DNA of 64,000 nt, from positions 6,567 to 70,566 of the forward strand of contig CANRCZ010000002.1 in assembly GCA_947629265.1 (NCBI GenBank). The letters run 5' to 3'. The notes below the pieces were generated by a model. The model ran no database searches. It was not told the DNA's origin and was given only the letters and a program-made list of their open reading frames with translations. Made by a program: the position numbers and the translations under genes. Source of the DNA: an uncultured Bacilli bacterium. Lineage in GTDB: Bacteria; Bacillota_I; Bacilli_A; RF39; UBA660. Shown here in pieces: positions 1 through 44,285 of this stretch (positions are counted from its first letter, which is position 1; every line of letters starts with the position of its first letter).

Positions 1-7
1 GATAAAT

Positions 8-430
8 ATGAATGAATATAAATTTGAGGATATTAAATTAGGCTTAGAACATGAGTTTAAAGTTGAACTAACACAAGAAAAAATGGATGCATTTTTAAGT
101 ATAACAGGGGATATAAATCCTCTTCATAATAACAAAGAATTTGCATTATCAAAAGGTTATGAAGATAAAGTAGTGTATGGAATGCTTACCTCATCATTTT
201 TATCTACACTAGCAGGAGTATATTTGCCTGGAAAATATAGTTTAATACATTCAGTGGACATTCTTTTTAAAAGATCAGTGTATTTAAAAGATAGTCCTCT
301 TACCATAAAAGGAAAAGTAATTGATAAAAATGACATATTTAAAGAATTTACAATAAAATATGAGATACTTAACAATAATAATGTGAAAGTAACAAGAGGT
401 ACAATGAAAGTAGGGTTGTTAGATGAATGA
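8..430 (+). CDS. MaoC-like (hotdog fold) dehydratase
   Basis: 140 aa. Hotdog/MaoC-like motifs (INPLHNN..FA..GY...VVYGML). Overlaps the start of the next ORF, so operonic. Confidence 0.5.
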   Translation: MNEYKFEDIKLGLEHEFKVELTQEKMDAFLSITGDINPLHNNKEFALSKGYEDKVVYGMLTSSFLSTLAGVYLPGKYSLIHSVDILFKRSVYLKDSPLTIKGKVIDKNDIFKEFTIKYEILNNNNVKVTRGTMKVGLLDE

Positions 431-1157
431 AAAAGTATTATTAGTAACAGGTGCATCAAGTGATATTGGAGTAGAGTTAATAAAAAATATACATCAAAAT
501 TATGACTATATAATTGCACATTACAATAATGATAAAGGTGACCTTGTAGAATTAGAAGATAAGTTAAATGATAAATTAATATTATTATCTAGTAACTTTT
601 TAGATGAAGAAGATACAAATAAATTTGTAGATACAATTATAGAAAAAGGTATAATTCCTAATCATATTGTTCATTTGCCTGCTGGAAATTGTATTAATAA
701 AAAATTTCATCAATTAAATTGGGAAAAGTTTAATAAAGATTTAAATATTGGATTAAGATCTATAACTACTATATTAATGAAATTAATACCATTAATGTTA
801 AAGGAGAAAAATGGTAAAATAATTTTTATGCTAACATCTTATACATTAAATATTCCTCCTAAATATTTAACTAGTTATGTAACAAGCAAATATGCATTAT
901 TAGGATTGATGAAATCTTTGGCTCAAGAATACGCTAGTAAGGGAATAACAGTAAATGGAATATCACCAAGTATGATAGAAACTAAATTTTTAAATAGTAT
1001 TCCAGAATTAATTGTAAAACAAAATGCTGAGAATAGCCCTACAAAAGAAAATTTAAAGGTTAATGATGTCGTTCCAACTATAGAGTTTTTATTATCTGAT
1101 AAAGCAAACTGTATAACTGGCGAAAATATTGCCATTACAAACGGCAATATAATGTAG
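423..1157 (+). CDS. short-chain dehydrogenase/reductase (SDR) family oxidoreductase
   Basis: N-terminal Rossmann motif LLVTGASSDIGVELI. Catalytic Y-x3-K (YVTSKYALLGLMKSLAQEY). Confidence 0.6.
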   Translation: MNEKVLLVTGASSDIGVELIKNIHQNYDYIIAHYNNDKGDLVELEDKLNDKLILLSSNFLDEEDTNKFVDTIIEKGIIPNHIVHLPAGNCINKKFHQLNWEKFNKDLNIGLRSITTILMKLIPLMLKEKNGKIIFMLTSYTLNIPPKYLTSYVTSKYALLGLMKSLAQEYASKGITVNGISPSMIETKFLNSIPELIVKQNAENSPTKENLKVNDVVPTIEFLLSDKANCITGENIAITNGNIM

Positions 1158-1172
1158 GAAGTAGGTATTATT

Positions 1173-2702
1173 ATGAATTTGATATCATTTATATTTGCAA
1201 TGTTTTGTATTTTAACAATATTGGTTTATTTTGTAACACCTAAAAAAATAAGATGGATAGTATTATTAATATCAAGTTTATTTTTCTTATTTTATAAAAA
1301 TTTTAATGTAGTAACAATATTACAAGCTTTAACAATATTTTTATCAGCATATATATTTGCTAGATTGATAGAAAAGTATAAAGATACACATAAATCAAAA
1401 ATATTTTTAGTAATTAGTATTTTGTTAATATTATTAGTGTTGATGTATTTTAAGTATTCTAATTTATTTTTAATAACTATAGATCATATTTGTAATATTT
1501 TGAAAATAGATTATGATTTAAAACTTGTGAGTAGAAATTCATTAATCGGTCTTAGCTATTATTCATTAATTATGATTGGATATTTAACTGATGTTTATAG
1601 AGGTAGTGTTAAAGCTGAAAAAAATATATTTAAATGTGCATTATTTATGGCATATTTTCCAATATTAAATTCTGGACCTTTTATAAAATTTGAAAATATG
1701 AAAGACACATTATATGAAGGTCATAAATTCAGCTATAAGAGAATGTGTAATGGTCTTATCAGGATAGCTTGGGGAGCATTTAAAATATTAGTTATATCTC
1801 AAAGATGTGGATATTTTGTAAATACTGTTTGGGGTGATTTAGCTAAATTTAATGGTGTATACTCAATTATTGCAGCTTTATTGTTTCCGGTAGAACTGTA
1901 TGCTAATTTTTCAGGATCAATTGATATTATAATGGGAGTTAGTGAAATAATAGGTATAGGGTTGCCGGAAAACTTTGATTCTCCATTCTTTTCAAAAACG
2001 ATGACTGAATTTTGGAGAAGATGGCATATAACATTAGGAGCATGGCTTAGGGATTATATTTTTTATCCAATTCAAAAATCTAGTATTATACAAAAGCTAA
2101 ACAAATTTTGTAAATCTAAATTTGGTAAAAAGGTTGGAAAAAAGATACCATTATTTATTTCTATGTTTATTATGTGGTTATGTATAGGAATATGGCATGG
2201 TGGAGAATATCACTATATAATTGGATCGGGAATATTACAATTTGTAATAATATTTTTAGAAGATACATTAACACCAATATCTAATAAAATAAATGATAAA
2301 TTAGGAATAAACAGAGAAACTTTTGGATATAAACTGTATCAAGTAACTAGAACATTTTTATTATTTTCATTTACTATGATATTTTTTAGAGCTACTGGTG
2401 TTGCCGAAGCTATTGAATTTATAAAGAGCATGTTTGTTTCAAATCCGTGGGTACTTTTTGATAATGAATCATTATATACAGCTGGACTTGATATGTTAGA
2501 TTTTAGAATTTTAAATATATCATTAATAGTTTTATTCGTAATTGATTATTTAAAGACTAAATTTGATGTTAGAGAAAAATTATTTTCTCAAAATATAGTA
2601 TTTAGATGGACTGTCATATTTGTTTTATTATTCTCTATTATAATATTTGGATGTTATGGCGTAGGTTATAATGCTGCTGACTTTATTTATAGGGGATTTT
2701 AG
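1173..2702 (+). CDS. MBOAT family membrane-bound O-acyltransferase (DltB/AlgI-like)
   Basis: Polytopic membrane protein carrying the MBOAT hallmark FWRRWHITLGAWLRDYIFYP with the conserved His. Confidence 0.7.
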   Translation: MNLISFIFAMFCILTILVYFVTPKKIRWIVLLISSLFFLFYKNFNVVTILQALTIFLSAYIFARLIEKYKDTHKSKIFLVISILLILLVLMYFKYSNLFLITIDHICNILKIDYDLKLVSRNSLIGLSYYSLIMIGYLTDVYRGSVKAEKNIFKCALFMAYFPILNSGPFIKFENMKDTLYEGHKFSYKRMCNGLIRIAWGAFKILVISQRCGYFVNTVWGDLAKFNGVYSIIAALLFPVELYANFSGSIDIIMGVSEIIGIGLPENFDSPFFSKTMTEFWRRWHITLGAWLRDYIFYPIQKSSIIQKLNKFCKSKFGKKVGKKIPLFISMFIMWLCIGIWHGGEYHYIIGSGILQFVIIFLEDTLTPISNKINDKLGINRETFGYKLYQVTRTFLLFSFTMIFFRATGVAEAIEFIKSMFVSNPWVLFDNESLYTAGLDMLDFRILNISLIVLFVIDYLKTKFDVREKLFSQNIVFRWTVIFVLLFSIIIFGCYGVGYNAADFIYRGF

Positions 2703-2713
2703 GAGGAAAAGTT

Positions 2714-3772
2714 ATGCGTAAATATATGAACAAATGTTATATATATATATATATATCAAGGGTTATATTATTTATCATTGTATTTTGTATGCTTTGGAAT
2801 TCTGTTTTTAAGATATTAAATGTGGATGCTAATCCTATAACTGAATTTTATAAAGAAGATAAAAATACAATGGATATTGCATATATAGGTAGCAGTAATG
2901 TGTTTATGCATTTTAATGCAACTCTAGCGTATGACAAATATGGCTTCACTACCGGTCTTTTTTCGATAGGTTCAGCACCTTTCATGACTTCAAAATATAT
3001 GATTGAAGAAGTATTAAAGTATCAGAGACCTAAATTATTTATTATAGATTTATCAACTGTAGCTACCGATTCTAATATTGTGTTTACAGAAAATAATGTA
3101 AGAAATATATCTAATTCATTCAAGCAATCAAAAAATAGAATGAATTTACTTAATGAAATGTTGAGCAAGTTAAAAGCTGATGGTGTTGAAATTGAAAAAG
3201 ACTATACCTTCTATTATCCATTTCTTTTGTATCACAATTCTTGGAAATCTTTAACTCATGAAAAACTTACTAAATCTAAAAATTATTTTAAAGGTTACTA
3301 TTTGTCAGAAAAACAAGTTGCAACAATTAGTTATTCAGATTTGCAATGGGTTGATGGAAGTGAACGATTACAAGAATATAACAATAATGTACTAATCGAC
3401 ACCTTAGAATATTTAAAGAGAAAAAATATAGAAGTTATTTTTACTGTTCCTATTAAAAATTATGATTGGCACGTCAAAAGGAAAACTAACAGAGCAATAG
3501 AAATTATAAAAAGTTATGGTTTTAATTATATTAATTTTAATGATCTTGATACGAATATAGTTGATTTTTCCACTGATTTATACGATTGGGGACATTTAAA
3601 TGTGTATGGCGCTACTAAATATACATTGTATTTTTCAAAGTATTTAAAAGAAAATTATGATTTACCAGATCATAGAAATGATAATAAATATTCATCTTGG
3701 AAAAGTGAATACGAAAGGTTTAAAATAGAATTTAATAATTTAACTAAAAAAAATTTTGATGATTTAATTTAA
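2714..3772 (+). CDS. MBOAT-partner DltD/AlgJ/DHHW-like SGNH-type O-acyltransferase accessory protein, paralog 1
   Basis: N-terminal signal anchor, then YIGSSN... and a C-terminal DLYDWGHLNVYGATKYT motif. Lies immediately downstream of the MBOAT gene. The 5' end contains a (TA)9 tract. Confidence 0.45.
   Translation: MRKYMNKCYIYIYISRVILFIIVFCMLWNSVFKILNVDANPITEFYKEDKNTMDIAYIGSSNVFMHFNATLAYDKYGFTTGLFSIGSAPFMTSKYMIEEVLKYQRPKLFIIDLSTVATDSNIVFTENNVRNISNSFKQSKNRMNLLNEMLSKLKADGVEIEKDYTFYYPFLLYHNSWKSLTHEKLTKSKNYFKGYYLSEKQVATISYSDLQWVDGSERLQEYNNNVLIDTLEYLKRKNIEVIFTVPIKNYDWHVKRKTNRAIEIIKSYGFNYINFNDLDTNIVDFSTDLYDWGHLNVYGATKYTLYFSKYLKENYDLPDHRNDNKYSSWKSEYERFKIEFNNLTKKNFDDLI
2738..2756. repeat. (TA)9 dinucleotide tract inside the 5' coding region (encodes YIYIYI)
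   Basis: Read directly: tatatatatatatatatat, in frame as tgt tat ata tat ata tat ata tca. Confidence 0.8.
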
Positions 3773-3785
3773 AGAGGGAGATAAT

Positions 3786-4835
3786 ATGAGAACAAATGTT
3801 ATATATATATATATATATAAAATATTTATATTTATAATTGTATTTATATTATTATGGAATAGTATATTCAATATTTTGTGGATAAATAAAAGTCCAATAT
3901 CACTATTTTATAAAGAACCAAAAAATTCTCTAGATATTGTTTACATTGGTAGTAGTAATGTATATGCGTACTTTAATACAACACTTGCTTATAATCAATA
4001 TGGATTTAAAACAGGTATTTTTGCAACAGATATGATGCCATTTTTGACGTATAAATATGCGATAGAAGAGTCATCAAAAACACAAAATCCAAAGCTATAT
4101 GTAATTGATTTAGCTACATCGATTGCTTCTTTAGATGTTTATAGTGAAGGTGATTTTAGAAGAACAATAGATTCTTTTAAATTTTCTAAGACTAGACGTG
4201 ATTTAATAAAATCTATGTATGAATATAAGGATTATTTAAGTTTTGAAATTAATGATATAAATGATTTTTATTTTTCATACCTTATGTACCATAATAAATG
4301 GAAGGAAATAACTGAAAGTTCGTTTAATAATGAAAAAAAATTATTTAAGGGATACTTATTTACATACTTTCAAACTAGAAAAGAAAAACATATTAAGTAT
4401 GATTGGAATTGCACTGAAAAAAAATTGATAAATTATAGCAAAGAAATACTAGAAGATTTATTAGAATATTTAAATAAAAATAATATTAATGTATTATTTA
4501 CTATACCTGTTAAAGTGTATACATTAGAACAAAATCAATATTTAAATAATGTTACCAAGATAATTGAAAAAAATGGATATAAAGTAATAAATTTTAATAA
4601 AGTTGATGATTTAAATATTGATTTTGATAATGATTTATATAATGCAAGTCATTTAAATGTATATGGCGCTACTAAATATACATTGTATTTTTCAAAATAT
4701 TTAAAATCTAATTATAATTTGCCTGATCATAGAAATAATGAAAAATATTCATCTTGGAAGAGTGAATACGAAAGGTTTAAAACAGAATTTAATAATTTAA
4801 CTCAAAGAAATTTTGATGAATTGTTAGATAATTAG
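3786..4835 (+). CDS. MBOAT-partner DltD/AlgJ/DHHW-like protein, paralog 2
   Basis: Tandem paralog of the preceding ORF with the same C-terminal motif (DLYNASHLNVYGATKYTLYFSKYLK). The 5' end contains a (TA)10 tract. Confidence 0.45.
   Translation: MRTNVIYIYIYKIFIFIIVFILLWNSIFNILWINKSPISLFYKEPKNSLDIVYIGSSNVYAYFNTTLAYNQYGFKTGIFATDMMPFLTYKYAIEESSKTQNPKLYVIDLATSIASLDVYSEGDFRRTIDSFKFSKTRRDLIKSMYEYKDYLSFEINDINDFYFSYLMYHNKWKEITESSFNNEKKLFKGYLFTYFQTRKEKHIKYDWNCTEKKLINYSKEILEDLLEYLNKNNINVLFTIPVKVYTLEQNQYLNNVTKIIEKNGYKVINFNKVDDLNIDFDNDLYNASHLNVYGATKYTLYFSKYLKSNYNLPDHRNNEKYSSWKSEYERFKTEFNNLTQRNFDELLDN
3800..3819. repeat. (TA)10 dinucleotide tract inside the 5' coding region of the paralog (encodes IYIYIY)
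   Basis: Read directly: tatatatatatatatatata. Same relative position as in paralog 1. Confidence 0.8.
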
Positions 4836-4968
4836 TATAAAGATTTTTTTATAAAAATAATGTAAGAAATATTTCTGGTTAATTTAAATAACATAAAGAT
4901 AGAATAAATTTGTTTGGTGAATAGATATATACTATTAGTTATCAATTGCAATCTATATCAATAAATTA

Positions 4969-5286
4969 TTAATCTTTATTTTCAAATATTGCTACTGCGA
5001 TTGTATATTTCTTTTCATGGGAAATAGAAATATTAATATTGCTATTGTTAGAGCAATATGGTTTTCCATCTTTATCATTCAATATTTCAAAGTCTAAGAA
5101 ATTATATGTCTTAGTATTAGGCAGTGCCTTCATAATAGCTTCTTTACCAGCTATTCGGCCACATAAATATAGATATCCTTTGTTTTTAAATTCTAATTGT
5201 TCATTTTTAGTTAAAACTAGATTAATAAATTCTTCATTCTTGTCAACTAGTCTTTCGTTTTCTACAATATCACAACCAATATTCAT
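4969..5286 (-). CDS. acpS: holo-[acyl-carrier-protein] synthase (4'-phosphopantetheinyl transferase)
   Basis: N-terminal MNIGCDIVENER (GxDxxExxR motif). ISISHEKKYTIAVAIF matches the SxSHxxxyAxA region of AcpS. Length 105 aa. Confidence 0.65.
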   Translation of the reverse strand: MNIGCDIVENERLVDKNEEFINLVLTKNEQLEFKNKGYLYLCGRIAGKEAIMKALPNTKTYNFLDFEILNDKDGKPYCSNNSNINISISHEKKYTIAVAIFENKD

Positions 5287-5514
5287 AAAATCACTTCCTA
5301 ATCTCTATTATACTAAAAAAGTATATAAAGTAAAGTTAATATTTAATTTTCAATATAAAATAAAAATCCTTTAGTAATAATATTGGATTGTTTTCTAAGA
5401 TTTTATTAATTTATTTTACTAATAATTTTTTGTTAATATTAAAATTTATGTATGAATTATCATTTTACATAATTAGTAAATAATGTTATAATGTTTAATA
5501 TAAAGAGGTGGATT

Positions 5515-6960
5515 ATGCGAAGTAAAAAATTAAAAAGAAAAAGAATACGTATTGCAAGTATTGTAATATTTACTTTAATGGTAATAATGATGTGTATTTT
5601 TATGGGATATTTAAAATATACTAACGTTTTATCTATGAAATATTATGGAGCTATACTATTTATGTTTTTAGTAATTGTATTACTTACTATGGCTATAACA
5701 TTTAAAAAGAATATAAAAAGTGGCATTAAAATCTTTTTTGATGTAATAATGGTTATTATTACATGTTTATTGGTAGCTGGAATGTTTCCTATGAGTAAAT
5801 TAATGAACTTTATGGGAAACATTCAAGATGATAACAAAGAATATGAAAATTATTATGTTTTAGTTCTAAAAGATAGTAAATATGATAAACTAAATGATAT
5901 TAAAAATAAAAATATCGGAATTTTAAAAAGTGATGATAAAGAATATAAAAATGCTTTAGAAAAATTAAATGATACTGTAAAAACAAAACAAACAGATTAT
6001 AAAGATAGCACAGCTTTATCAGATAACTTGTTAAATAAAAAAGAAGAGGCTATATTCATTGATAGTGTTGGTTATTATATGACAGAAGAAGAAACCAGTA
6101 AATATTATGGTAAATTTAAAGTATTAGATACTATTAATATAGCAACTGAAAGCAAAATTGAAAAAGAAGATGTTAATGTTGTAAAAGAATCATTTAACAT
6201 TTATATTAGTGGTATTGATACATATGGTAAAATATCTACTAAATCAAGAAGTGATGTAAATATTATAGCTACAGTAAATCCTAAAACCAATAAGGTATTA
6301 TTGACTAGCATTCCACGTGATTATTATGTACAATTACATGGAACTACTGGATATAAAGATAAATTAACACATGCTGGTGTTTACGGAATTAATCAATCAA
6401 TTAATACTATTGAGGATTTATTAGATATTAAAATTAACTACTATATGAGGGTAAATTTTACAACATTAATTAAAATGGTAGATGTCATTGGTGGTGTGGA
6501 TATTAATTCTGATATGTCTTTTTATCCTTTATCTGATTCAACATGTTATATAAAGAAAGGTAATAATCATTTAAATGGTAAATGTGCTTTAGCATATGCA
6601 AGAGAAAGACATGCTTATGCCTCAGGAGATAGACATAGAGGACAAAATCAACAACAAATTATAACAGCTATGATTAATAAATTTACAACAAATAAATCAT
6701 TAGTTTTAAAATATAACAGTATATTTAATTCATTAGAGGGAAGTTTTCAAACTAATATGGGTACAAGTAAAATTACATCACTTGTTCAAAAACAAATTGA
6801 TTCTATGCCAAGTTGGGATATTGAATCATACAATCTAGATGGTAGTGGTAAAATGACATATACATATAGTTATCCAGGACAAAAATTATATGTAATGGTT
6901 CCATATGAAGAAACTGTAGAAACAGCTAAAACAAAAATAGACAGTTTATTACAGGAATAA
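5515..6960 (+). CDS. LytR-CpsA-Psr (LCP) family cell-envelope phosphotransferase
   Basis: N-terminal TM segments, then an LCP core (ATVNPKTNKVLLTSIPRDYYV...GVYGIN...MRVNFTTLIKMVDVIGGVDIN). Start moved to the ATG at 5515, preceded by AAGAGGTGG. The track start at 5491 has no SD. Confidence 0.7.
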   Translation: MRSKKLKRKRIRIASIVIFTLMVIMMCIFMGYLKYTNVLSMKYYGAILFMFLVIVLLTMAITFKKNIKSGIKIFFDVIMVIITCLLVAGMFPMSKLMNFMGNIQDDNKEYENYYVLVLKDSKYDKLNDIKNKNIGILKSDDKEYKNALEKLNDTVKTKQTDYKDSTALSDNLLNKKEEAIFIDSVGYYMTEEETSKYYGKFKVLDTINIATESKIEKEDVNVVKESFNIYISGIDTYGKISTKSRSDVNIIATVNPKTNKVLLTSIPRDYYVQLHGTTGYKDKLTHAGVYGINQSINTIEDLLDIKINYYMRVNFTTLIKMVDVIGGVDINSDMSFYPLSDSTCYIKKGNNHLNGKCALAYARERHAYASGDRHRGQNQQQIITAMINKFTTNKSLVLKYNSIFNSLEGSFQTNMGTSKITSLVQKQIDSMPSWDIESYNLDGSGKMTYTYSYPGQKLYVMVPYEETVETAKTKIDSLLQE

Positions 6961-7215
6961 TAAAATTAATTATCCCTGTAATAAATACCAATTATAGAAA
7001 ACGATTTTACTTTAATATAACAAATAAATACTATATAAAAGATTTATGAGTTCCTCATCAAATGTTTGTAGTTATCAAATATTTATTAAAGTTAATTTAA
7101 TAGTTGTGTTGATTTCAGTTTTTCTTTTAGTGGTGTGTCTTGATGGATGGTATCTGATATAAATAGTTATAGTTTTAAGTAATAATTATAACTTTGAATG
7201 ATAGGGTGGGTAATT

Positions 7216-8325
7216 ATGAAAAATTTAAAAGTTGATAGTAAACCAAAAAATCATCGCCAATCAAATATAGAATTACTTAGAATTGTATCGATGTTATTTA
7301 TTATAATGTTTCATTATGTATATAAAAGTGGATATACCTCACCAACATTTACATTTAATTATTTTATAGTAAAATTATTTTATATGCTTGGTGAATTAGG
7401 AGTAAATATATTTATTCTAATAAGCGGTTATTTTATGATAAAAGGTAAGTTTAGTATAAAGAAATTAATTAAATTATTATTAGAAGTAGAATTTTATTAC
7501 CTTTTTTCAGTGTTTATCGCTTCAAAACTAGGAATTTACACAGTTAGTCATACTTTTAAAGGTATATTTATGTTGTTCTTCCCAACTACTTTAAATAGGT
7601 ATTGGTTTATAACAGTTTACGTATTGATCTATATTTTAAGTCCATATCTAAATATACTAGCTAATAACATGGATAAAAAGACTTATCAAAAGTTTTTGTT
7701 TACTGTTTTATTAATATGGTGCGTGATACCAACTTTCTTTGGATTATTTTTTAACGGAACAGAATCAATGTTATATTATTCAAGATTTATCTGGCTTATT
7801 ATAATATATTTTGTTGGTGCTTATATAAGACTAAATCCTGTAAATATTTTTTCTAAAAATAATAATGCCATCATATGTTTTTCAATATCAACAGTGGCAA
7901 CTATTATAGGAATTTTAGGTTTTTATAAATTTAGAAATATTTTAGCAAATTTAGGTACAACAGAAATTGCATATTTTTGGCAACCAAATTCCATTTTAAT
8001 GTTTTTATTAAGTATTTCATTATTCACTATTTTTCTAAAGGTAAAAATAAACTATAATTTTATAATAAATAAATTAGCATCTACAACTTTAGCAGTCTAC
8101 ATGTTACATGATGGTATCTTGCAAGGGTATATTTGGAATAATATTTTTAAAACAAAAATGAGGCTCGGGGGGGGGTATTCTATAATTCATATATTGATTG
8201 CAACCGTAATAATATACCTAGTTGGCAGTGTAATAGATTTAATAAGACAATTCTTATTTGATAACGTACTAGATAGATTGATAAATAACTTTAAATCAAA
8301 AAAAGCATCAGTGCAACTTAATTAA
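7216..8325 (+). CDS. Acyltransferase_3 family (OatA/OafA-like) integral membrane O-acyltransferase
   Basis: NHRQSNIELLRIVSMLFIIMFH and about 10 TM segments are typical of acyltransferase family 3. ATG at 7216 follows GGGTGGG. Contains an in-frame G9 tract at 8167-8175. Confidence 0.6.
   Translation: MKNLKVDSKPKNHRQSNIELLRIVSMLFIIMFHYVYKSGYTSPTFTFNYFIVKLFYMLGELGVNIFILISGYFMIKGKFSIKKLIKLLLEVEFYYLFSVFIASKLGIYTVSHTFKGIFMLFFPTTLNRYWFITVYVLIYILSPYLNILANNMDKKTYQKFLFTVLLIWCVIPTFFGLFFNGTESMLYYSRFIWLIIIYFVGAYIRLNPVNIFSKNNNAIICFSISTVATIIGILGFYKFRNILANLGTTEIAYFWQPNSILMFLLSISLFTIFLKVKINYNFIINKLASTTLAVYMLHDGILQGYIWNNIFKTKMRLGGGYSIIHILIATVIIYLVGSVIDLIRQFLFDNVLDRLINNFKSKKASVQLN
8167..8175. repeat. poly-G tract (G9) inside the acyltransferase ORF
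   Basis: aggctc GGGGGGGGG tattc encodes RLGGGY. The same aggctYggggggggg context recurs at 40858. Confidence 0.85.
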
Positions 8326-8433
8326 AGTTTCAATATGCTTTTTATTTTTATGCAACAATATGTAGATATTGTTAATTTATAGATATGTAAATGATACAAT
8401 AAACTCATTTAATAGATAGATGGAGATGGATTT

Positions 8434-10800
8434 ATGAAAATTAGTAAAATTAAAATAGATAGTTCATTTGCAAAATTTGAAGATGGTGAAATATTAGATT
8501 TATCAACTTTATCAGAAAAAAATCAAAATCGGGTTTTTATATATGGCAGTAATGGTGCTGGTAAAAGTTCATTGTCAAAATTATTTTCAATTGGTAATAT
8601 GAAATTAGATGGCAATTTAGATTATCAAAATAGACTATCTTTATTAAAAACTACCAATAATGATAATCCATTATCTGTAAAAATATATTATAATGAAGAA
8701 GATTATACGGAATTTAATAATGATATTATAAGGCCCAAAAGGATACCTGTTTTTAATAAAGACTATATTGATTCTAAAATAACCTATCAAACTGATTTTA
8801 AAAATAATAAATTTGATCAGCAAGAATCTACATATAGTATTGAATTAGAATCAAAAACCAATTATCATGAAAAACTGAAAGAATTTACAAGAAATAAAGA
8901 AAAATTAGATGAATTAGAATTAAAAATCAATAATGAAATAATGTCAGGCATTAATGAAACAACTAAGGATACAGGTACAACTAAGGCAAATAAGATATAT
9001 ATGGAGGAGTATAATTTTACACAGTTTATAAGTCTGTCAGCTAAATCAATTCCAACTAGTAATTTAGATAAATTAAGATTAGAGCATCAGCAGTTCATTA
9101 AAAATTTAAAAGATTTAACAGAAGAAGATATCATAGAATTTGAAATAAAAGAATTTGATAAAGAAAATAAAATTCAAAAAAGAATAGATGAAATAAACAA
9201 AACAATAAAATTTAATGAAGATAAATCGAAATTAGATTTTGTTAAAAAATATTTAGATAGATATAGTGATGAGGAAAGAGAGTGGAAGATAAAAGGAGCT
9301 ATTTTATTAGGTGATGCTGATAAATGCCCATTTTGTGAACAAAATATTAAAGATATTGGTATAGTTGAATCATACAAGAATTATGTTAATAGCAGTACTA
9401 AAAAAGTAGAAAATTTTATCGAAGGGCAAATTGAATTTTTTAAAAATAGTAATAACGTAGTTAATAACTATATTGAAGGATATATTTTAAAGGCTAAAAA
9501 TGTAGATAAAATTTTTAATACTAATATAGCTGAAGACATTGATTTATTTATTAAAGAATTAATGAACTTTAACAAGCGTGTAATCGAACTTTTAAATAAA
9601 AAATTAAATCCTGAAAATCTATATATTGATTGTTCTGATATTTTAGAGGAGATAGATTTTAATTTGTTTGAAGAATTGGAATATAACTATAATAATCTAG
9701 TAAAGAAAATAGAAGATATTAATAGAAAAGTTACTAGTAATAAAAACGAAAAAGATAAAAGAAATAGAGAATATTTAAGGACAACTGGTAAATATATTAT
9801 CTATAATAAAATTAGGGATGAAATAAAAGAGTATAACTCATTAAAAATTAAAGATACTTTATTATCATCAGAAACTGGAGAATTAAAATCAAAATATCAA
9901 AAAGATATTCAAGAAAAAAATGAACTGTTAAAAACTATCAATAGTATATTAGATGAATTTAATATTACTAATTATAGAGTTGATGAAAATTTTGATATAT
10001 TTTTAAATGATTATAATGTAAGCACAAATGTAGAAAAAATGCTAAGTGATGGTGAAAAAAACATGATAGCATTTGCATTATTTGCAGCAGAACTTAAATT
10101 GCTGTATACAGAATCCGAGAAAGAAATTATATTTATTGATGATCCTATTACATCTGTTGATTATCCTAATTTATACAATATATATAATTACCTTGTAAAT
10201 ATAATTGAAGAAAATAAATCATCACAAATTTTTATTACATCACATAATATCGTATTTTTAAATATGTTAAAATTTAGATATAGTAAAGAAGCTACATACT
10301 ATAAACTATACACAAAACACAATAAGACTTATATTAAAATGGATGATTGTAAGTATGATTCTATTTACTTGGAAAAATTAAAAGAAATTTATAAAATTTC
10401 TAAAGAAAATGAAATAGATAAAAATCAAAAATTATACATTCATAATTATTGTAGGTATGTACTTGAAACACTATCAAGATTTGAATATCCAGATCATAAT
10501 AATGATGCCGATTCTTCTAGAGAATACATCAAAAATCTAAAGAAAGATATTAAAAATGGAAAAGTAAATTTATCAATAAGTGAAAAGAAATTAGATAGTT
10601 TATTAAATATCATTAATAAAGGTTCACATGCAACTTTAGATGTTGTTCATGATGGTGAAATATTTACGGATGAACATTATATTAATGCTTGTAAACAGGT
10701 AATAAATATAATTCATGCTAAGTATGAGGGACAATATCAATTATTAACTAATTCATATTCATCTGATGATTCAAAGAAAGAAAAAATTTCAAAAAAATAG
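8434..10800 (+). CDS. RloC-like Rad50/ABC-type ATPase with C-terminal anticodon-nuclease-like region
   Basis: Walker A GSNGAGKSS, a long coiled-coil insert containing a CPFC (CxxC zinc-hook-like) motif, an ABC signature-like LSDGEK, Walker B IIFIDDP, then a C-terminal region with Arg/Glu/His candidates (NYCRYVLETLSRFE ... KGSHATLD). This 788-aa architecture matches RloC/PrrC. Confidence 0.5.
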   Translation: MKISKIKIDSSFAKFEDGEILDLSTLSEKNQNRVFIYGSNGAGKSSLSKLFSIGNMKLDGNLDYQNRLSLLKTTNNDNPLSVKIYYNEEDYTEFNNDIIRPKRIPVFNKDYIDSKITYQTDFKNNKFDQQESTYSIELESKTNYHEKLKEFTRNKEKLDELELKINNEIMSGINETTKDTGTTKANKIYMEEYNFTQFISLSAKSIPTSNLDKLRLEHQQFIKNLKDLTEEDIIEFEIKEFDKENKIQKRIDEINKTIKFNEDKSKLDFVKKYLDRYSDEEREWKIKGAILLGDADKCPFCEQNIKDIGIVESYKNYVNSSTKKVENFIEGQIEFFKNSNNVVNNYIEGYILKAKNVDKIFNTNIAEDIDLFIKELMNFNKRVIELLNKKLNPENLYIDCSDILEEIDFNLFEELEYNYNNLVKKIEDINRKVTSNKNEKDKRNREYLRTTGKYIIYNKIRDEIKEYNSLKIKDTLLSSETGELKSKYQKDIQEKNELLKTINSILDEFNITNYRVDENFDIFLNDYNVSTNVEKMLSDGEKNMIAFALFAAELKLLYTESEKEIIFIDDPITSVDYPNLYNIYNYLVNIIEENKSSQIFITSHNIVFLNMLKFRYSKEATYYKLYTKHNKTYIKMDDCKYDSIYLEKLKEIYKISKENEIDKNQKLYIHNYCRYVLETLSRFEYPDHNNDADSSREYIKNLKKDIKNGKVNLSISEKKLDSLLNIINKGSHATLDVVHDGEIFTDEHYINACKQVINIIHAKYEGQYQLLTNSYSSDDSKKEKISKK

Positions 10801-10928
10801 TTTTTATTAAAATATTTAATAAAAATTTTACAAAATAACACCAATATTAACCAATAATAAAAAATAACAAACGCATACATAAAAATTTCAAAAAATTACA
10901 ATATAATTAATATAGGAAGTGAGTTAGT

Positions 10929-11046
10929 ATGTTTTTGATTGGATTGATTATTGGTTTATTTATAGGTAGTTTTATAACTCTAATATTATATTCATGTATG
11001 GTCATTTCTAAAGAAGCTGATGAATGTATAGATAAAATGAATTAGT
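10929..11046 (+). CDS. small hydrophobic membrane peptide (39 aa)
   Basis: Not in the track. MFLIGLIIGLFIGSFITLILYSCMVISKEADECIDKMN, with an AGGAAGTGAG SD. Confidence 0.2.
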
Positions 11047-11094
11047 ATTTTAATACCATAATTAATATGATATAATTGCTTAGAAGGAGCATTT

Positions 11095-11541
11095 ATGAAA
11101 AAAATTATATCATGGATATTATTGTTAATTTGGTTGTTGATCATTTTTTATCTATCAAACCAAAATAGTGATATATCAGGTAATAGTAGTGGCAAAATAT
11201 TAAAAAATATTTTAAATTTTATCTATGACTTATTTAATATTAATACAAATAGTATAGACAGTGTTTTAGAAATAATACATAATCCTGTTAGAGAATTGAT
11301 GCATACATTTGAATACTTAATTTTAGGATTATTAATCTTTAATCTACTAAGAGTATATAATGTAGATAACAATATCATAATTATATGTATTTTATTATCC
11401 TTTTGCTATTCTATATCAGATGAAATTCATCAAATATTTGTAAAAGGTAGAACTTTTGAATATTTAGATATAATAATGGATACATTAGGTAGTATCTTAG
11501 GCACCTTAATAGGATGTAAGCTAATGAAGCGTAACTTATAA
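11095..11541 (+). CDS. VanZ family membrane protein
   Basis: Four TM segments and the ISDEIHQIFVKGRTFEYLDIIMDTLG motif typical of VanZ-like proteins. Confidence 0.5.
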   Translation: MKKIISWILLLIWLLIIFYLSNQNSDISGNSSGKILKNILNFIYDLFNINTNSIDSVLEIIHNPVRELMHTFEYLILGLLIFNLLRVYNVDNNIIIICILLSFCYSISDEIHQIFVKGRTFEYLDIIMDTLGSILGTLIGCKLMKRNL

Positions 11542-11563
11542 ATTACGTTTTTTTGTTTCTAAA

Positions 11564-12058
11564 CTACCTGTACCCACCATTAACCAAAGATGTATTTTCC
11601 CGAGCAATCAAAGCATTACTATCCAATTTTTTAATAATATCGATCAACTTATTAGTTTTATACCTATGCGTAATAATCAAATGCGTATATATCTTCGTTT
11701 CTAATCCATCGCTTTTTAACGTCGTAACCGCATAACCATTACCACGGATTTGGCTAGATAAATCCCACTTAGTAATACATATAATCAAATTAGTCCCTAG
11801 CGCCAATTTCTCCTCAACCTTGCTACCTAAATAAGAACCAAAAGCCGAACCAAGCGCAAAAGCAAACAATTTAAAAATATCCTGATCAATATCCACAATA
11901 ACCAAACTAGTACCAAGTAACCAGACCATCGTATTAGCAAACTGTAATAGAGCACCCAGTACTTTCTTATTATTATTGATGATGATAATCCTTAAAGTCG
12001 CTAACATATTTTCAAGTATTTTAGAGCCAAAAATAAATAAGTATAGTAATATATTCAT
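11564..12058 (-). CDS. UPF0316/DUF2179 family membrane protein
   Basis: Layout and motifs resemble Bacillus YebE-type UPF0316 proteins (GSKVEEKLALG..., C-terminal ...NGGY). Confidence 0.4.
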   Translation of the reverse strand: MNILLYLFIFGSKILENMLATLRIIIINNNKKVLGALLQFANTMVWLLGTSLVIVDIDQDIFKLFAFALGSAFGSYLGSKVEEKLALGTNLIICITKWDLSSQIRGNGYAVTTLKSDGLETKIYTHLIITHRYKTNKLIDIIKKLDSNALIARENTSLVNGGYR

Positions 12059-12154
12059 ACTTATATTATTACAATAATTAAGATAAATTATACAACTTTA
12101 AAAAAAGTATGTTAAAATTAAAAAAAATATGTTACAATTATCCTAGGTGATAGA

Positions 12155-12694
12155 ATGAACATAGAAACCGTTTTTGAAACTTTAAAAAATAATCAGAATA
12201 TCGATGATGACTTTAAAGAACTAATCCAAGAATTGATAATCATCTTTACTAAGTTTTTTCCAAACGTCGATTTAACCAACCTAAACAATAAACTAAAAGA
12301 CTTAAAGATTATCAAAGCTAATAAATTGATCAGTAAAGATATTATCGACTATAACGTTGTAAATAACGAACTTATCTTTAACCTAGAAGAAATAATGAAA
12401 GATTACGATCTAAGACATGTTCTAATGCATGGATTACTTAGAGTTATAACATCCTACGATAATACCTTTGGTTTCGATCAAAACAACCGCTTTACAGCCT
12501 TAAATATAGGTTATACCGAAATAATTACGAACTTTATTATCGGTAACGAAAGTATCTTAACCTTGTTTGATGATGAGGTTATCGCTACCAACTTAATAGC
12601 GGATGTCGTAGGTCACGATGTTTTATTTCAAGCGTACTTTACTAACAATGCTAACTTATTAGCAAGTACTTTAATCGATAAAGGAGTTGAATAA
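12155..12694 (+). CDS. hypothetical protein
   Basis: 179-aa ORF with SD-like GGTGATAG upstream. No recognisable motif. Confidence 0.3.
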   Translation: MNIETVFETLKNNQNIDDDFKELIQELIIIFTKFFPNVDLTNLNNKLKDLKIIKANKLISKDIIDYNVVNNELIFNLEEIMKDYDLRHVLMHGLLRVITSYDNTFGFDQNNRFTALNIGYTEIITNFIIGNESILTLFDDEVIATNLIADVVGHDVLFQAYFTNNANLLASTLIDKGVE

Positions 12695-12998
12695 AATGAA
12701 ATCAAAAACAATGGATTTAATGAATGCTAATTACCTATCAAGAAAATGCGATAACAATAACGTATATCGTAGTACCTTAGGTGATATCGAAAAGATAATT
12801 ATCGATGCCTATATCAAAAATCCTCATACCGAAGAAGAGGTTAATAACTTTGAAGCTAATCTGTATGGAAATAGTAGCATGTTTGACGATGATATCCATA
12901 AATCTGTCGATAACGTTTATCCATATTGGGACGTCGCTAAAACCAATATTCAAACCTATAGCTATGACACAGAACAAAGTCTAGGAAGAACTATTTAA
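12687..12998 (+). CDS. hypothetical protein
   Basis: 103-aa ORF overlapping the end of the previous ORF. No recognisable motif. Confidence 0.25.
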   Translation: MNKMKSKTMDLMNANYLSRKCDNNNVYRSTLGDIEKIIIDAYIKNPHTEEEVNNFEANLYGNSSMFDDDIHKSVDNVYPYWDVAKTNIQTYSYDTEQSLGRTI

Positions 12999-13116
12999 TA
13001 TGATCAAAAAGTAACTTTACATTTAAGTATAGTTATTTTTATATTGTCAATATTCGAATTATGTTTTAAAAAGATACATATATTATGGTATAATAGTAAT
13101 GATTGGAGAGAATTAT

Positions 13117-14205
13117 ATGAGAGTAATTGTCAGCGCTGGTGGAACAGGTGGTCATATCTATCCCGCTTTAGCAGTTATAAACAAGATAAAAGAGATGGAA
13201 CCTGATAGTGAATTTGTGTATATAGGTACACATAACAGAATGGAAAAAGACATCGTTCCTAGCAAAAATATTCCTTTTGAATCTATTGAAATATATGGTA
13301 TCAATAGAAAACACTTGCTTAAAAATTTTAAGACTTTAAAATGTTTTATCAAAAGTCAAAAAAAAGTTAAAAAGATCATCAAAGAATTTGATCCTGATAT
13401 CGTAATTGGTTTTGGAGGATACGTAACTGGTCCCGTTATTAAAATCGCCCATAAACTAGGTTATAAAACTTTCATCCACGAACAAAACTCAGTCGTTGGA
13501 AAAGCTAATCTGTATTTAGCAAAATACAGTAGTAAAATAGGCGTATCATTTGAATCAAGTATCGATAGTTTCCCTAAAAAGAAAACCGTTTTTACTGGTA
13601 ACCCTGTCAGTGAAGAAGCTGTTAAAAAAGAACCATTAAAAAAATCACAATTAGGTTTAAACGATAATAAAAGATTGATCGTCTTTGTCATGGGTTCACT
13701 AGGTTCTAGTAAAGTAAATGATATTTTAGTTAAAACGATGAACTCTTTTAAAGATAAAGATTATCAAATCTTATTTATAACTGGTAACTCTGGTTACGAT
13801 AAGATAAGTCAAAACAAATTTCCAAGTAACGTTAAAGTTATGCCATACTTAGATGATATGACGCGAATTTTAAAAAATACCGACTTAATTGTAACGCGAG
13901 CTGGAGCATCGACATTAAGTGAGATAATCGCTTTAAACGTTCCGGCTATCTTGATACCAAGTCCATATGTAACTAACAATCATCAATATAAAAATGCTTG
14001 TGACCTTACTAAACACGATGCCGCTATCATCATTGAAGAGAAAGATTTAAGTAAAAAAGTTCTTGTCGATAAGATCGATGAACTTATGAACGATAAAGAA
14101 AAATTAAAGGTTATGAAAGAAAATTTAAACAGTTTAAAAATAGAAAATAGTGCTTTAAAAATATACAATGTTTTAAAAGAATTGGTAGATCAAAATGCTA
14201 GATAA
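13117..14205 (+). CDS. murG: UDP-N-acetylglucosamine--N-acetylmuramyl-(pentapeptide) pyrophosphoryl-undecaprenol GlcNAc transferase
   Basis: MRVIVSAGGTGGHIYPALAV N-terminus and the GT28 C-terminal domain. The ATG at 13117 follows GGAGAG. Confidence 0.8.
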   Translation: MRVIVSAGGTGGHIYPALAVINKIKEMEPDSEFVYIGTHNRMEKDIVPSKNIPFESIEIYGINRKHLLKNFKTLKCFIKSQKKVKKIIKEFDPDIVIGFGGYVTGPVIKIAHKLGYKTFIHEQNSVVGKANLYLAKYSSKIGVSFESSIDSFPKKKTVFTGNPVSEEAVKKEPLKKSQLGLNDNKRLIVFVMGSLGSSKVNDILVKTMNSFKDKDYQILFITGNSGYDKISQNKFPSNVKVMPYLDDMTRILKNTDLIVTRAGASTLSEIIALNVPAILIPSPYVTNNHQYKNACDLTKHDAAIIIEEKDLSKKVLVDKIDELMNDKEKLKVMKENLNSLKIENSALKIYNVLKELVDQNAR

Positions 14206-15073
14206 CTTAGACGTTGGTACAGTAAGTTACAATGTTGCAATTAAAAAATATACAACCTATAAGTTAGATGGCACTATTAAAACGCTAGTCGTACCTGATA
14301 ATACGAGACAACTTATCAACGTTATCAAATACGCTAAAGAAAACAATATCAAATATAAAGTTATTGGCAATGGTTCTAATTTGATATTCGCCGATGATTT
14401 TGATGGTATTATCATTAAACTAGATAATTTTAATCATTTAGAAATAATCGATAACTTTGTCGTTGTAGGAGCAGGTTACAGTTTACCACTTTTAGCCCTT
14501 AACCTATCAAAAGAGGGGTACTCAGGATTAGAATTTGCAGCTGGTATTCCAGGTACTGTAGGCGGCTCTATTTTCAACAACGCTGGAGCTTATAAAAGCG
14601 ATATGGCAGCGGTTGTTAAGTCTATCTTAGTTTTAACACCCGATTTAGAAATCAAAAGACTTAGTAGTGAAGATTTAAAATTTAATTATCGAACATCATT
14701 TTTAAAAGATCATCCCGATTATATATGCTTAGAAGCCATAATTAAATTGATTAAAGGTCATACCGATGTCATCATGGAGGTTATCGATAGTAGAAAAAAA
14801 AGAAGAATGGAAACCCAACCTTTAGACTATCCATCAGCGGGTAGTATCTTTAGAAATTCTGATGACTTTTCAGCTTGGAAACTAATTGATGGTATCGGTT
14901 ATAAAGGAAAGCAAATCGGCGATGCTAAAGTAAGTGAAAAACATGCTAATTTTATTATAAATGTAGGTAATGCTAAGGGTAAAGACGTTATCAAATTAAT
15001 AGATGAAATTAAAGAAAAAGTAAAAGAAAAGTACGATATTGAATTAGTATTAGAACAAGAAATAGTAAAGTAG
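14195..15073 (+). CDS. murB: UDP-N-acetylenolpyruvoylglucosamine reductase
   Basis: FAD-binding domain and MurB C-terminal motifs (GSNLIF..., PSAGSIFRN). Overlaps the murG stop. Confidence 0.8.
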   Translation: MLDNLDVGTVSYNVAIKKYTTYKLDGTIKTLVVPDNTRQLINVIKYAKENNIKYKVIGNGSNLIFADDFDGIIIKLDNFNHLEIIDNFVVVGAGYSLPLLALNLSKEGYSGLEFAAGIPGTVGGSIFNNAGAYKSDMAAVVKSILVLTPDLEIKRLSSEDLKFNYRTSFLKDHPDYICLEAIIKLIKGHTDVIMEVIDSRKKRRMETQPLDYPSAGSIFRNSDDFSAWKLIDGIGYKGKQIGDAKVSEKHANFIINVGNAKGKDVIKLIDEIKEKVKEKYDIELVLEQEIVK

Positions 15074-15080
15074 GGATAAT

Positions 15081-15761
15081 ATGAAAAAGGTAAAAAAGAA
15101 AAAAAGGATCCGTTTTAAAAGAGTTTTTATTTTAATCGTTATATTTATCATAATTGGTTATATAATTAAAAGCTTGTTTTCTTTACCTGTTAGTAATATT
15201 ATTATCAAAGGAAATACTTATCTTTCTGATCAAGAAATTATCGATTTATCAGGTCTATCTAATTATCCATCTATCATTGATAATAGTTCTAAGCAAATCG
15301 CTAATAAACTTGAGGAAAATATCTATATTTCATCCGCTAAAGTTAGTAAGAACATTCATCGTGAGGTAACGATTGAAATTTCTGAAAATAAACCATTATT
15401 TTATAATTTATCGAAAAAGAAAACTGTTTTGATGAACGGTAAGGATATTGATGAAATGTTGGAGGTACCTGTTTTAATCAATTATGTACCTGATACTATT
15501 TATAATGATTTTATAAAGAGTATGTCTAAAACAGAGTATAGTATTTTAAAAAAAATATCCGAAATAAAGTATGATCCTAGTAATGTGGATAAGAAACGTT
15601 TCTTATTATATATGAGTGATCGAAACAAGGTATATGTAACATTAGATAAATTTTCTAAAGTAAATAATTATAATGATATTATTGAAAAGGTATTAGTCAA
15701 ATACGATGATAAAAAGGGTACTTTATATTTGGATGAGGGTGAGTATTTTGTCCTTAATTAA
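15081..15761 (+). CDS. divIB: cell division protein DivIB/FtsQ-like
   Basis: Basic N-terminus, one TM segment and a POTRA-like segment. Position after murG-murB matches the Firmicutes division and cell wall (dcw) cluster. Confidence 0.5.
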   Translation: MKKVKKKKRIRFKRVFILIVIFIIIGYIIKSLFSLPVSNIIIKGNTYLSDQEIIDLSGLSNYPSIIDNSSKQIANKLEENIYISSAKVSKNIHREVTIEISENKPLFYNLSKKKTVLMNGKDIDEMLEVPVLINYVPDTIYNDFIKSMSKTEYSILKKISEIKYDPSNVDKKRFLLYMSDRNKVYVTLDKFSKVNNYNDIIEKVLVKYDDKKGTLYLDEGEYFVLN

Positions 15762-15810
15762 TTATAACGAAAGTTATAATTTTTTTCTTTTAAATTAATA
15801 AAAAAATAGA

Positions 15811-15849
15811 CCGATATCGGTTGACTTGTTAAAAATTAAATGTTATACT
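15811..15849 (+). promoter_or_regulatory. 10-bp palindrome CCGATATCGG abutting a TTGACT-17-TATACT promoter
   Basis: Perfect palindrome at 15811-15820, then TTGACT (15821-26), a 17-nt spacer and TATACT. The same palindrome recurs at 16178-16187. Confidence 0.45.
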
Positions 15850-15882
15850 TGTATAAAATAAAGGGTAAAAAAAATGATAATG

Positions 15883-16122
15883 TTAATCATCAATTTTATC
15901 GAAATTAAATAGTTCGCTATCATAGAAATCTTTTAAAGATATCCTTAGTGTTCTACATATTTTATAAATAACGTATGAACTAGGATTATCAACTTTATTC
16001 GCTAGTAGTGATCTTAAAGTAGTAGGTGGAACTGTTGACATTTCGGCTAGTTTATTTGGTGTATATTTGTATTCTTTGCATAGGTTTAAAATTCTTTTGC
16101 TTACGGCCTCTTTATATAACAT
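15883..16122 (-). CDS. XRE-family helix-turn-helix transcriptional regulator (cassette A)
   Basis: 79-aa HTH protein (KLAEMSTVPPTTLRSLLANK). Divergent from the P1 gene. GGAGAT SD. Confidence 0.5.
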   Translation of the reverse strand: MLYKEAVSKRILNLCKEYKYTPNKLAEMSTVPPTTLRSLLANKVDNPSSYVIYKICRTLRISLKDFYDSELFNFDKIDD

Positions 16123-40815: not shown

Positions 40816-40861
40816 AAAAATAAAGGAGAGGAAGATAAAAAAATGAAAGAAAAAATAAGGC

Positions 40862-44134: not shown

Positions 44135-44285
44135 TAACGAAGAAACTCTAAAATTATTTGGGGTTTTTTTGTTTTATATCAAAAATATAAATGTCGAAAA
44201 TTGTCGTACAATTTTTGATACAAATTTTTTCTAAAAAAAAGGAAATGAAAAAGTTTTGTCGTATCATATAAGTAGGGAGGGAAAA

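Follow-up and report, generated by a model that had tools for sequence, protein, structure and literature searches.

Is a run of nine G residues inside a bacterial surface-modification gene a genetic switch or a tolerated peculiarity of its coding sequence? The question is raised by a G9 tract near the 3′ end of a gene for a predicted membrane O-acyltransferase of the acyltransferase-3 (AT3) family in an uncultured Bacilli bacterium. The analysis covered a 64,000-nucleotide stretch of contig CANRCZ010000002.1 (assembly GCA_947629265.1), which we refer to as the window. Reading the window sequence directly, we found aggctcGGGGGGGGGtattc at 8161-8180. A first-pass annotation of this DNA had placed a G9 tract within an Acyltransferase_3 gene at these positions and had described the tract as in frame and the gene as ON. 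The sequence and a match to Pfam PF01757 agree on the location, and the G9 is indeed in frame within the open reading frame (ORF) 7198-8325. Taken together, the features described below suggest that this tract is probably a working ON/OFF switch, which would make the gene a contingency locus for surface modification.

The window is 27.5% GC, and across its 64 kb we detected only two G/C runs of at least six nucleotides: the G9 of the acyltransferase gene (8167-8175) and a second G9 located in a prepilin-like gene (40864-40872). The next-longest runs were four of length 5. We derived the chance expectation from 100 dinucleotide-preserving shuffles of the window, which yielded a mean of 0.02 G9 matches per shuffle; none of the 100 shuffles gave two. 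The codons of the tract are likewise uncommon in the window, where GGG represents 4.1% of glycine codons, CTC 1.1% of leucine codons and AGG 9.4% of arginine codons. The tract region of the acyltransferase, AGG-CTC-GGG-GGG-GGG, consists of five rare codons in a row within a gene of 23% GC, and the only two Gly-Gly-Gly tripeptides in the ~17,300 codons of the window are both found at the G9 tracts. Because AGG, CTC and GGG are all rare codons, the tract is not explained by the need to encode RLGGG, and codon usage indicates that it is a DNA-level feature rather than a by-product of the protein sequence. In Campylobacter, G/C runs of at least seven are the accepted cut-off for phase variation, and every run of at least eight varies in C. 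jejuni NCTC 11168 (PMC6321876). The acyltransferase G9 is an intragenic G/C tract beyond the length of 7-8 that characterizes contingency loci, and such tracts are commoner in the window than expected by chance.

We then considered what a change in tract length would do to the protein, whose residue numbers follow the 375-amino-acid ORF. In an AlphaFold2 (AF2) model, residues 324-327 form the loop between a helix at 319-323 and the last long helix at 328-365, for which the predicted local distance difference test (pLDDT) exceeds 90. Three residues of this last helix (D347, R350 and Q351) are invariant across 26 homologues and G343 is nearly invariant. Tracts of G8 or G11 give products of 328 or 329 amino acids, 47 or 46 residues under 375, with a stop two codons later. 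Tracts of G7 or G10 give products of 353 or 354 amino acids with a 28-residue hydrophilic foreign tail. The ON frame shows the hydropathy peak of the last helix, which the +1 tail lacks, and neither OFF frame encodes a hydrophobic helix. The first-pass estimate of a truncation 50 codons before the end of the gene proved approximately right, since ~47-49 native C-terminal residues are lost. As at known contingency loci, the gain or loss of one nucleotide would be expected to destroy the product, and the intact frame is conserved.

The switch that we favor would operate as follows. With nine G residues the acyltransferase gene would be ON, and slipped-strand mispairing at replication would add or remove a G. 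The frame would then be lost in the loop just ahead of the last transmembrane helix, and the truncated product is predicted to be inactive because the last helix, with its invariant D-x-x-R-Q residues, would be gone. A second slip would restore the frame. A clonal population would in this manner be mixed for modified and unmodified surface glycan, which could provide a hedge against phage or host factors recognizing this glycan. We would expect the tract to vary at a rate high enough to be useful.

The loop interrupted by the tract is variable within the family. In 25 homologues (46-63% identity) it takes the form HL-x-x-x-YS, with constant length and variable sequence, and GGG was found there in none of them. 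A 56%-identical homologue reads AAA ACA AAA GAG CAT TTA CAA GGT TCT at the tract site, and its contig (10.9 kb) contains no G/C run of at least five. Because the homologue loops lack GGG and the 56%-identical homologue lacks a G run, the comparison indicates that the G9 is specific to the lineage of the window and that substitutions in a permissive loop gave rise to it. A variable loop that would tolerate GGG also fits the main rival to a switch, namely a fixed and tolerated Gly3 loop that arose through drift or a single conversion event with the pilin tract as donor, and whose frame would be kept by purifying selection, with rare slips under intact mismatch repair and no switching. The position of the tract near the 3′ end of the gene is also in line with such a loop. 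We nevertheless consider this explanation unlikely: in a gene of 23% GC, the five consecutive rare codons are hard to account for unless the DNA itself was selected or transferred.

Homologous genes provided a second line of evidence. We scanned 120 listed AT3 homologues for glycine triplets and then read their 90%-identity clusters. The cluster of P0083, a protein 53% identical to that of the window, comprises members of >90% identity that present three different tails after ...HILVIGGG. The ON form has 385 amino acids and continues with VFLVGMSIDLLRQ..., a second form of 373 or 348 amino acids continues with YSLLECPLICCVRR..., and a third form of 347 or 322 amino acids ends with IPCWNVH-stop. 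A constraint search found that these three tails fit a single reconstructed DNA read in three frames, in which a G run is followed by TATTCCTTGTTGGAATG.... The ON and OFF members of this cluster present 0-1 residue differences over 311 upstream residues, and the same OFF frame was found on two backgrounds 6 residues apart. In the P0078 cluster we observed GG, GGG, or GGGGG plus a frameshift on cores with 0-1 differences, which corresponds to reconstructed tracts of ~G7, G10 and G14. Finally, P0080 and P0363 have 376 amino acids vs 336 for P0098, which ends exactly at GGG; a one-base loss in P0098 could create a TAG at this point, the end of the contig being an alternative.

When the window gene, the P0083 and P0078 clusters and P0080 are aligned jointly, their tracts fall at three distinct sites in the final 50 codons, implying that 3′ poly-G tracts arose independently in this AT3 subfamily. 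The protein and reconstructed DNA sequences therefore point to a subfamily that has repeatedly gained such tracts, whose length appears to change much faster than the protein sequence. As expected of contingency loci, the reconstructed tract lengths differ among near-identical homologues. The independent gain of poly-G in the same 50-codon region, with ON and OFF variants on near-identical backgrounds, argues against a fixed Gly3 loop. Four further homologues (P0047, P0069, P0088 and P0096) present GGG or GGGG, mostly followed by valine, at residues ~101-111, in a variable loop equivalent to residues ~113-123 of the window protein. These glycines may reflect another set of poly-G tracts. Cluster look-ups for these homologues with GGG in the loop between transmembrane helices 3 and 4 returned no length variants, the clusters being single-member.

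Several observations weigh against a working switch. We compared the alleles of the window and of two ENA metagenome contigs from different samples (L001 and L002; ERZ27249148 and ERZ27249643), each at ~2x coverage. All three assemblies present G9, so that tract length did not differ among isolates of the same gene in this set, and the 2.5 kb of each ENA contig match the window at 100% identity. No OFF allele of the window acyltransferase was found in the protein collection (520 homologues). Both results are those predicted by a fixed Gly3 loop. This sample of three assemblies is tiny and perhaps represents one strain, and because the species is rare (the nearest other homologue is only 63% identical) the length-variation test is almost powerless. 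Translational switches are mostly located near the 5′ end of genes, and the acyltransferase tract sits 86% along its gene. If mismatch repair is intact in the host, a G9 may slip too rarely to switch. In addition, the variation among homologues could be partly homopolymer sequencing error; the recurrence of identical variants in assemblies from NCBI, ENA and Logan counts against such error. A comparison across strains, which the first-pass annotation had proposed as a check, was thus only partly favorable: tract and frame differences were found in two homologous AT3 clusters, and the window gene itself was G9 in 3/3 assemblies. An exact-protein look-up of the acyltransferase returned only the two 2.5-kb ENA contigs and that of prfA only one 1.2-kb contig, while those of 5491-6960, 8434-10800, 423-1157, 62471-63184, 39607-40719 and 40862-44134 returned nothing on record.

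The agreement of these assemblies also bears on the possibility of a sequencing or assembly artefact, either two-color Illumina poly-G or a chimeric join at the homopolymer. The source appears to be metagenome-assembled, and the acyltransferase and prfA recur on low-coverage ENA metagenome contigs (~2x), which is in line with such an artefact. However, both flanks of the tract lie in the same gene, the reading frame is kept across the tract, three separate assemblies agree on G9, and an orthologous pilin G9 is found in two metagenomes of the Joint Genome Institute (JGI). We consider an artefact extremely unlikely. A chimeric join at the tract was ruled out by the gap-free alignment to homologues across it.

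The second G9 of the window, where aggcttGGGGGGGGGttattc is present at 40858-40877, lies in the leader of a giant prepilin-like protein and is currently out of frame. ATG 40843 is the only well-placed start of this gene; translated from it, the G9 sequence gives R-L-G-G-G-L-F and terminates after 16 codons. With a tract of G8 or G11, the pilin frame reads R-L-G-G-G-Y-S and then MKEKIRLGGGYSTLKNKG/FTLIELL..., for a total of 1096 or 1097 codons (the slash separates positions -1 and +1). The first-pass statement that both tracts encode RLGGGY stands for the acyltransferase site; at the pilin site it is true only at G8 or G11. We searched for a class III prepilin signal, defined as a short basic leader, G at -1, F at +1, E at +5 and then a hydrophobic helix. 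This signal (KNKG/FTLIELLAVIVILAIIA; Pfam N_methyl, E=2.1e-07) was found only in the G8/G11 frame from ATG 40843. The leader of the window pilin has 18 amino acids vs 5 in 62 of 120 homologues, which places the tract in an extended leader.

A related gene presents the same tract in the other state. P0381 is 46% identical to the window pilin over the first ~195 residues and is encoded on two JGI metagenome contigs (L063 and L064). Its gene adjoins prfA, whereas in the window an ABC-transporter gene stands between the pilin gene and prfA. The leader in L063 (23.6% GC) carries G9 at the same position (residues 8-10), followed by tyrosine and in frame, and this is the sole G/C run of at least six in 21.5 kb. 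Because the orthologous leader of a related organism has G9 at the same site, the comparison indicates that the pilin tract is older than the window genome, and the reading frames indicate opposite expression states, the gene being OFF in the window and ON in L063/L064. In its behavior, this second tract resembles a switch: in the window 1090 codons remain open downstream of the frameshift, leaving the 3.3-kb frame intact, and the related organism has the tract in frame. That a sister tract of the same genome is currently out of frame is a further point against a fixed Gly3 loop in the acyltransferase. Another protein of the 90% cluster of P0381 (P0380, JGI) starts with MNQKNKKG/FTL and lacks the 11-residue tract-bearing leader segment (compare L063 10001-10060), and a further member, P0382 (475 amino acids), starts at an internal methionine, as expected if the 5′ end were out of frame. 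A look-up of the closest pilin homologue (P0121) returned nothing. Directly downstream of the pilin-like gene, at 44256-46301 (+), we identified a C39-peptidase ABC exporter of the bacteriocin or double-glycine leader type, which is an unusual pairing with a prepilin-type protein.

A pilin ORF that is open though out of frame would also be accounted for by recoding, that is, transcriptional slippage or ribosomal frameshifting on the rare GGG run. Recoding would produce a fixed ratio of full-length to truncated acyltransferase and a low-level rescue of the out-of-frame pilin with no change in the DNA. Homopolymers are slippery in general, GGG is a rare codon in the window, and identical triplets permit tRNA re-pairing in shifted frames. 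However, transcriptional slippage is known mostly at A or T runs, the OFF products of the acyltransferase look non-functional and not like alternative isoforms, and the homologue variants are DNA-level differences between assemblies. We judge recoding to be very unlikely and retain slippage at the DNA level as the preferred reading.

The two tracts of the window also share their surroundings. The first-pass annotation had described the two sites as closely alike, and our analysis confirmed this: 15 of the 18 flanking bases match, and no other of 127,918 positions on both strands scores above 13. When the pilin tract is set to G8, 24 of 27 positions match without gaps, and the ungapped alignment covers ~29 nt in the same codon phase (K-[M/I]-R-L-G-G-G-Y-S). 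We searched for AGGCTY-G8-N(0-4)-TATTC in 596 Gb of genomes, in which the source genome is absent, and obtained 10 single matches with unrelated flanks at loci of 40-53% GC. In metagenome contigs, the specific 21-base context yielded 0 matches and a looser pattern yielded 48 single matches with unrelated flanks, including L023, the only locus of similarly low GC. A widespread mobile module was rejected, given that the specific pattern was absent from the metagenome contigs and that looser patterns gave only scattered singles with unrelated flanks. Deletion-type or reciprocal recombination between the direct copies was dismissed as well: it would delete 32 kb including parC, gltX, murG and murB. 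The loss of these core genes by reciprocal exchange leaves only non-reciprocal patch conversion as viable. The earlier proposal of a shared module or recombination thus survives in part, in that the similarity is statistically real, but without a widespread module or deletion-type recombination.

The ancestral residues at the shared site are L, Y and S in the acyltransferase family and only Y in the pilin leader. A recent copying of the pilin leader tract from the acyltransferase is weakened by the orthologous G9-Tyr leader, and it may be that only the flanks were converted. Our tentative inference from the alignment is that both G tracts already existed when non-reciprocal conversion transferred a short patch between them, with the acyltransferase as the main donor and the pilin gene as the main recipient. 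A broader proposition is that poly-G switches are recurrent and partly transferable in uncultured low-GC Firmicutes, with 3′ tracts arising independently at least three times in the AT3 subfamily and a ~28-nt patch (AAAAAT-R-AGGCT-Y-Gn-TATTC) transferred from one surface gene to another, unrelated one through short-patch gene conversion that the G runs themselves seeded. This proposition is speculative and we regard it as rather improbable. If it were true, loci would come to share phase-variability, or its tuning, through spread or homogenisation, and the G(n)TATT 3′ context would mark this process or a slippage preference. A 3′ TATT(C) was observed after four poly-G tracts: TATTC in the window acyltransferase (8176-8180), T-TATTC in the window pilin (40873-40878), TATTCC in the reconstructed DNA of P0083/P0078 and TATTTA in the L063 pilin (10031-10036). 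The P0083/P0078 tract with its TATTCC context is at a different codon position from the tract of the window acyltransferase. The recurrence of this context could reflect a preference of slippage or conversion, or chance.

Table 1. Tracts, shared contexts and genes discussed in the text, with their positions in the window.
Feature	Position	Strand	Details
G9 homopolymer, proposed slippage switch	8167-8175	+	Codons 324-326 (Gly-Gly-Gly) of the 375-aa ORF, equal to 318-320 of the 369-aa product
Segment for the last transmembrane helix (residues 328-365) and C-terminal tail	8176-8325	+	Lost or replaced at every out-of-frame tract length
Context in common with the second tract	8154-8180	+	AAAAATGAGGCTC-G9-TATTC
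Stand-alone AT3 membrane O-acyltransferase gene, 369 aa	7216-8325	+	Pfam PF01757, motifs, AF2 model
CpsA-like LCP glycopolymer ligase gene, directly upstream of the acyltransferase	5491-6960	+	Pfam LytR_cpsA_psr, E=6.6e-41; NCBIfam LCP_trans_Cps2A, E=2.7e-105, below the equivalog cut-off
Second G9 homopolymer, leader-peptide codons of the prepilin-like gene	40864-40872	+	
Context in common with the first tract	40851-40878	+	AAAAATAAGGCTT-G9-T-TATTC
Prepilin-like giant surface protein gene, 1096 aa	40843-44134	+	N_methyl, fn3 and Big_2 domains; frame-shifted (OFF) at G9

The assignment of the acyltransferase to the AT3 family is based on several properties (Table 1). An upstream in-frame ATG at 7198 would give the 375-amino-acid form, but the true start is likely ATG 7216, behind a GGGTGGG ribosome-binding site; the resulting 369-amino-acid form is also the one in public collections (P0001). 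The Acyl_transf_3 profile matched with E=3.5e-28 and 99 bits vs a cut-off of 31, covering profile positions 3-321 of 326. An R/K-X10-H motif in transmembrane helix 1 is a criterion for AT3 proteins (PMC9558356). The window protein presents this motif as R28-IVSMLFIIMF-H39 together with a FILISGYF segment, and R28, H39 and this segment are invariant across the 26 homologues. The AF2 model, built on the homologue alignment, is all-helical with ~10-11 long helices (pLDDT 87; predicted template-modeling score 0.86). The protein has a single Pfam domain and no fused SGNH domain, as expected of an AT3-only enzyme. Among solved folds, the model comes closest to HGSNAT, a human transmembrane acetyl-CoA acetyltransferase, and the match is weak (E=0.03, probability 0.99). 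A sequence search of solved structures gave nothing useful, and the NCBIfam profiles yielded no specific name for the acyltransferase.

The genes around the acyltransferase suggest its role. Because a CpsA-like LCP ligase gene, a DltB-like MBOAT gene, murG and murB are nearby, the substrate is most likely a cell-wall or capsular polysaccharide. VanZ, murG and murB are encoded downstream. The GC content is 20-26% over the first 11 kb, an envelope and defence segment that includes the acyltransferase, vs ~30% in the adjacent murG-murB region (11000-16000), and this low-GC segment (1-11000) is consistent with a variable surface-polysaccharide island. A cluster at 8-4835 (+) encodes a MaoC-like dehydratase, a short-chain dehydrogenase, the DltB-like MBOAT (TIGR04091, E=1.9e-38, far below the cut-off) and two 350-amino-acid proteins without family match. 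This cluster may represent a second cell-envelope acylation system beside the AT3 gene. Directly downstream of the acyltransferase, at 8434-10800 (+), we found a full-length match to the PADLOC candidate defence family PDC-S06 (E=4.9e-48), whose product is also similar to PrrC and LmuB. The ENA contig L001 diverges from the window past 8814, inside this defence gene, and continues with a new ribosome-binding site and ATG (L001 2481-2576). This divergence may mean that the defence gene has been replaced at the strain level, or that the low-coverage contig is chimeric. The window also encodes YqfD, indicating a spore-forming low-GC Firmicute as host, and no recorded protein exceeds 73% identity to its ParC.

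If the acyltransferase tract is a switch, uncultured low-GC Firmicutes would switch two classes of surface structure, a glycan O-acyltransferase and a giant pilin-like adhesin, and the acyltransferase gene adjoins a candidate anti-phage gene. AT3 and pilin genes that are recorded as "frameshifted" or "truncated" in metagenome-assembled genomes may be OFF alleles and neither pseudogenes nor errors. Such switching could be measured in metagenomes with the homologue clusters as a ready data set, since they contain ON and OFF forms on identical backgrounds. Finally, the flanks common to the two tracts pose the testable question of whether repeat tracts exchange sequence with each other.

Knowledge of simple-repeat phase variation comes almost wholly from a small number of pathogens, chiefly Neisseria, Haemophilus, Campylobacter and Helicobacter. 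Campylobacter lacks mismatch repair, and the Neisseria gene pglI is under poly-G control. To our knowledge, no description of the Campylobacter and Neisseria systems mentions unrelated tracts with near-identical flanks. The window resembles the phasomes of these genera (PMC6321876) by its poly-G tracts of at least seven inside surface-structure ORFs of a low-GC genome, with several per genome and as the dominant repeat type. Their hosts are Proteobacteria or Campylobacterota, unlike the host of the window. In Neisseria, as proposed for the window, a pilus component and an O-acetyltransferase are both under poly-G control. PglI is an AT3-SGNH fusion (PMC1976384), unlike the AT3-only protein of the window.

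The first-pass remark that phase-variable O-acetyltransferases are known in other bacteria is borne out by H. influenzae oafA (PMC9558356) and S. aureus icaC (PMC4117637). In icaC, slippage of a late tetranucleotide repeat cuts IcaC from 350 to 303 amino acids, a loss of 47 residues (PMC4117637). This slip disrupts a transmembrane domain and abolishes polysaccharide production, and it is reversible and RecA-independent (PMC4117637). The likeness to the window gene is close: both have a Firmicute host and an AT3-only protein of a surface polysaccharide, and in both a late frameshift removes 47 C-terminal residues including a transmembrane segment (375 to 328 amino acids in the window gene). In contrast, icaC carries a "ttta" tetranucleotide repeat and the window gene a G9 homopolymer. 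icaC belongs to the ica operon and has a known substrate, poly-N-acetylglucosamine (PNAG), whereas the window gene neighbors a CpsA-like LCP ligase gene and its substrate is suggested by context. Switching of icaC has been demonstrated experimentally, whereas we infer that of the window gene.

In oafA, the repeat is presumably not at the 3′ end of the gene. Like the window gene, oafA encodes an AT3-family surface-glycan enzyme with an intragenic simple repeat, and it is switched ON and OFF (PMC9558356). Unlike the window gene, it has a tetranucleotide repeat, a Gram-negative host and a lipooligosaccharide substrate. The S. pneumoniae gene wcjE, an AT3 capsule O-acetyltransferase, is repeatedly inactivated in vivo, converting serotype 11A to 11E (cited in PMC9558356). 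As with the window gene, wcjE is a stand-alone AT3 in a Gram-positive cps-type setting, and its loss alters surface antigenicity. In contrast to the window gene, wcjE has no dedicated repeat and is inactivated by varied and apparently irreversible mutations. By analogy with icaC and oafA, it is credible that the acyltransferase of the window is controlled by an already known mechanism, the simple-repeat translational phase variation of a surface O-acyltransferase. What sets it apart from these systems is the uncultured Firmicute host, the 3′ position of the tract ahead of the last helix, the recurrence of tracts in one AT3 subfamily and the flanks shared with a second tract.

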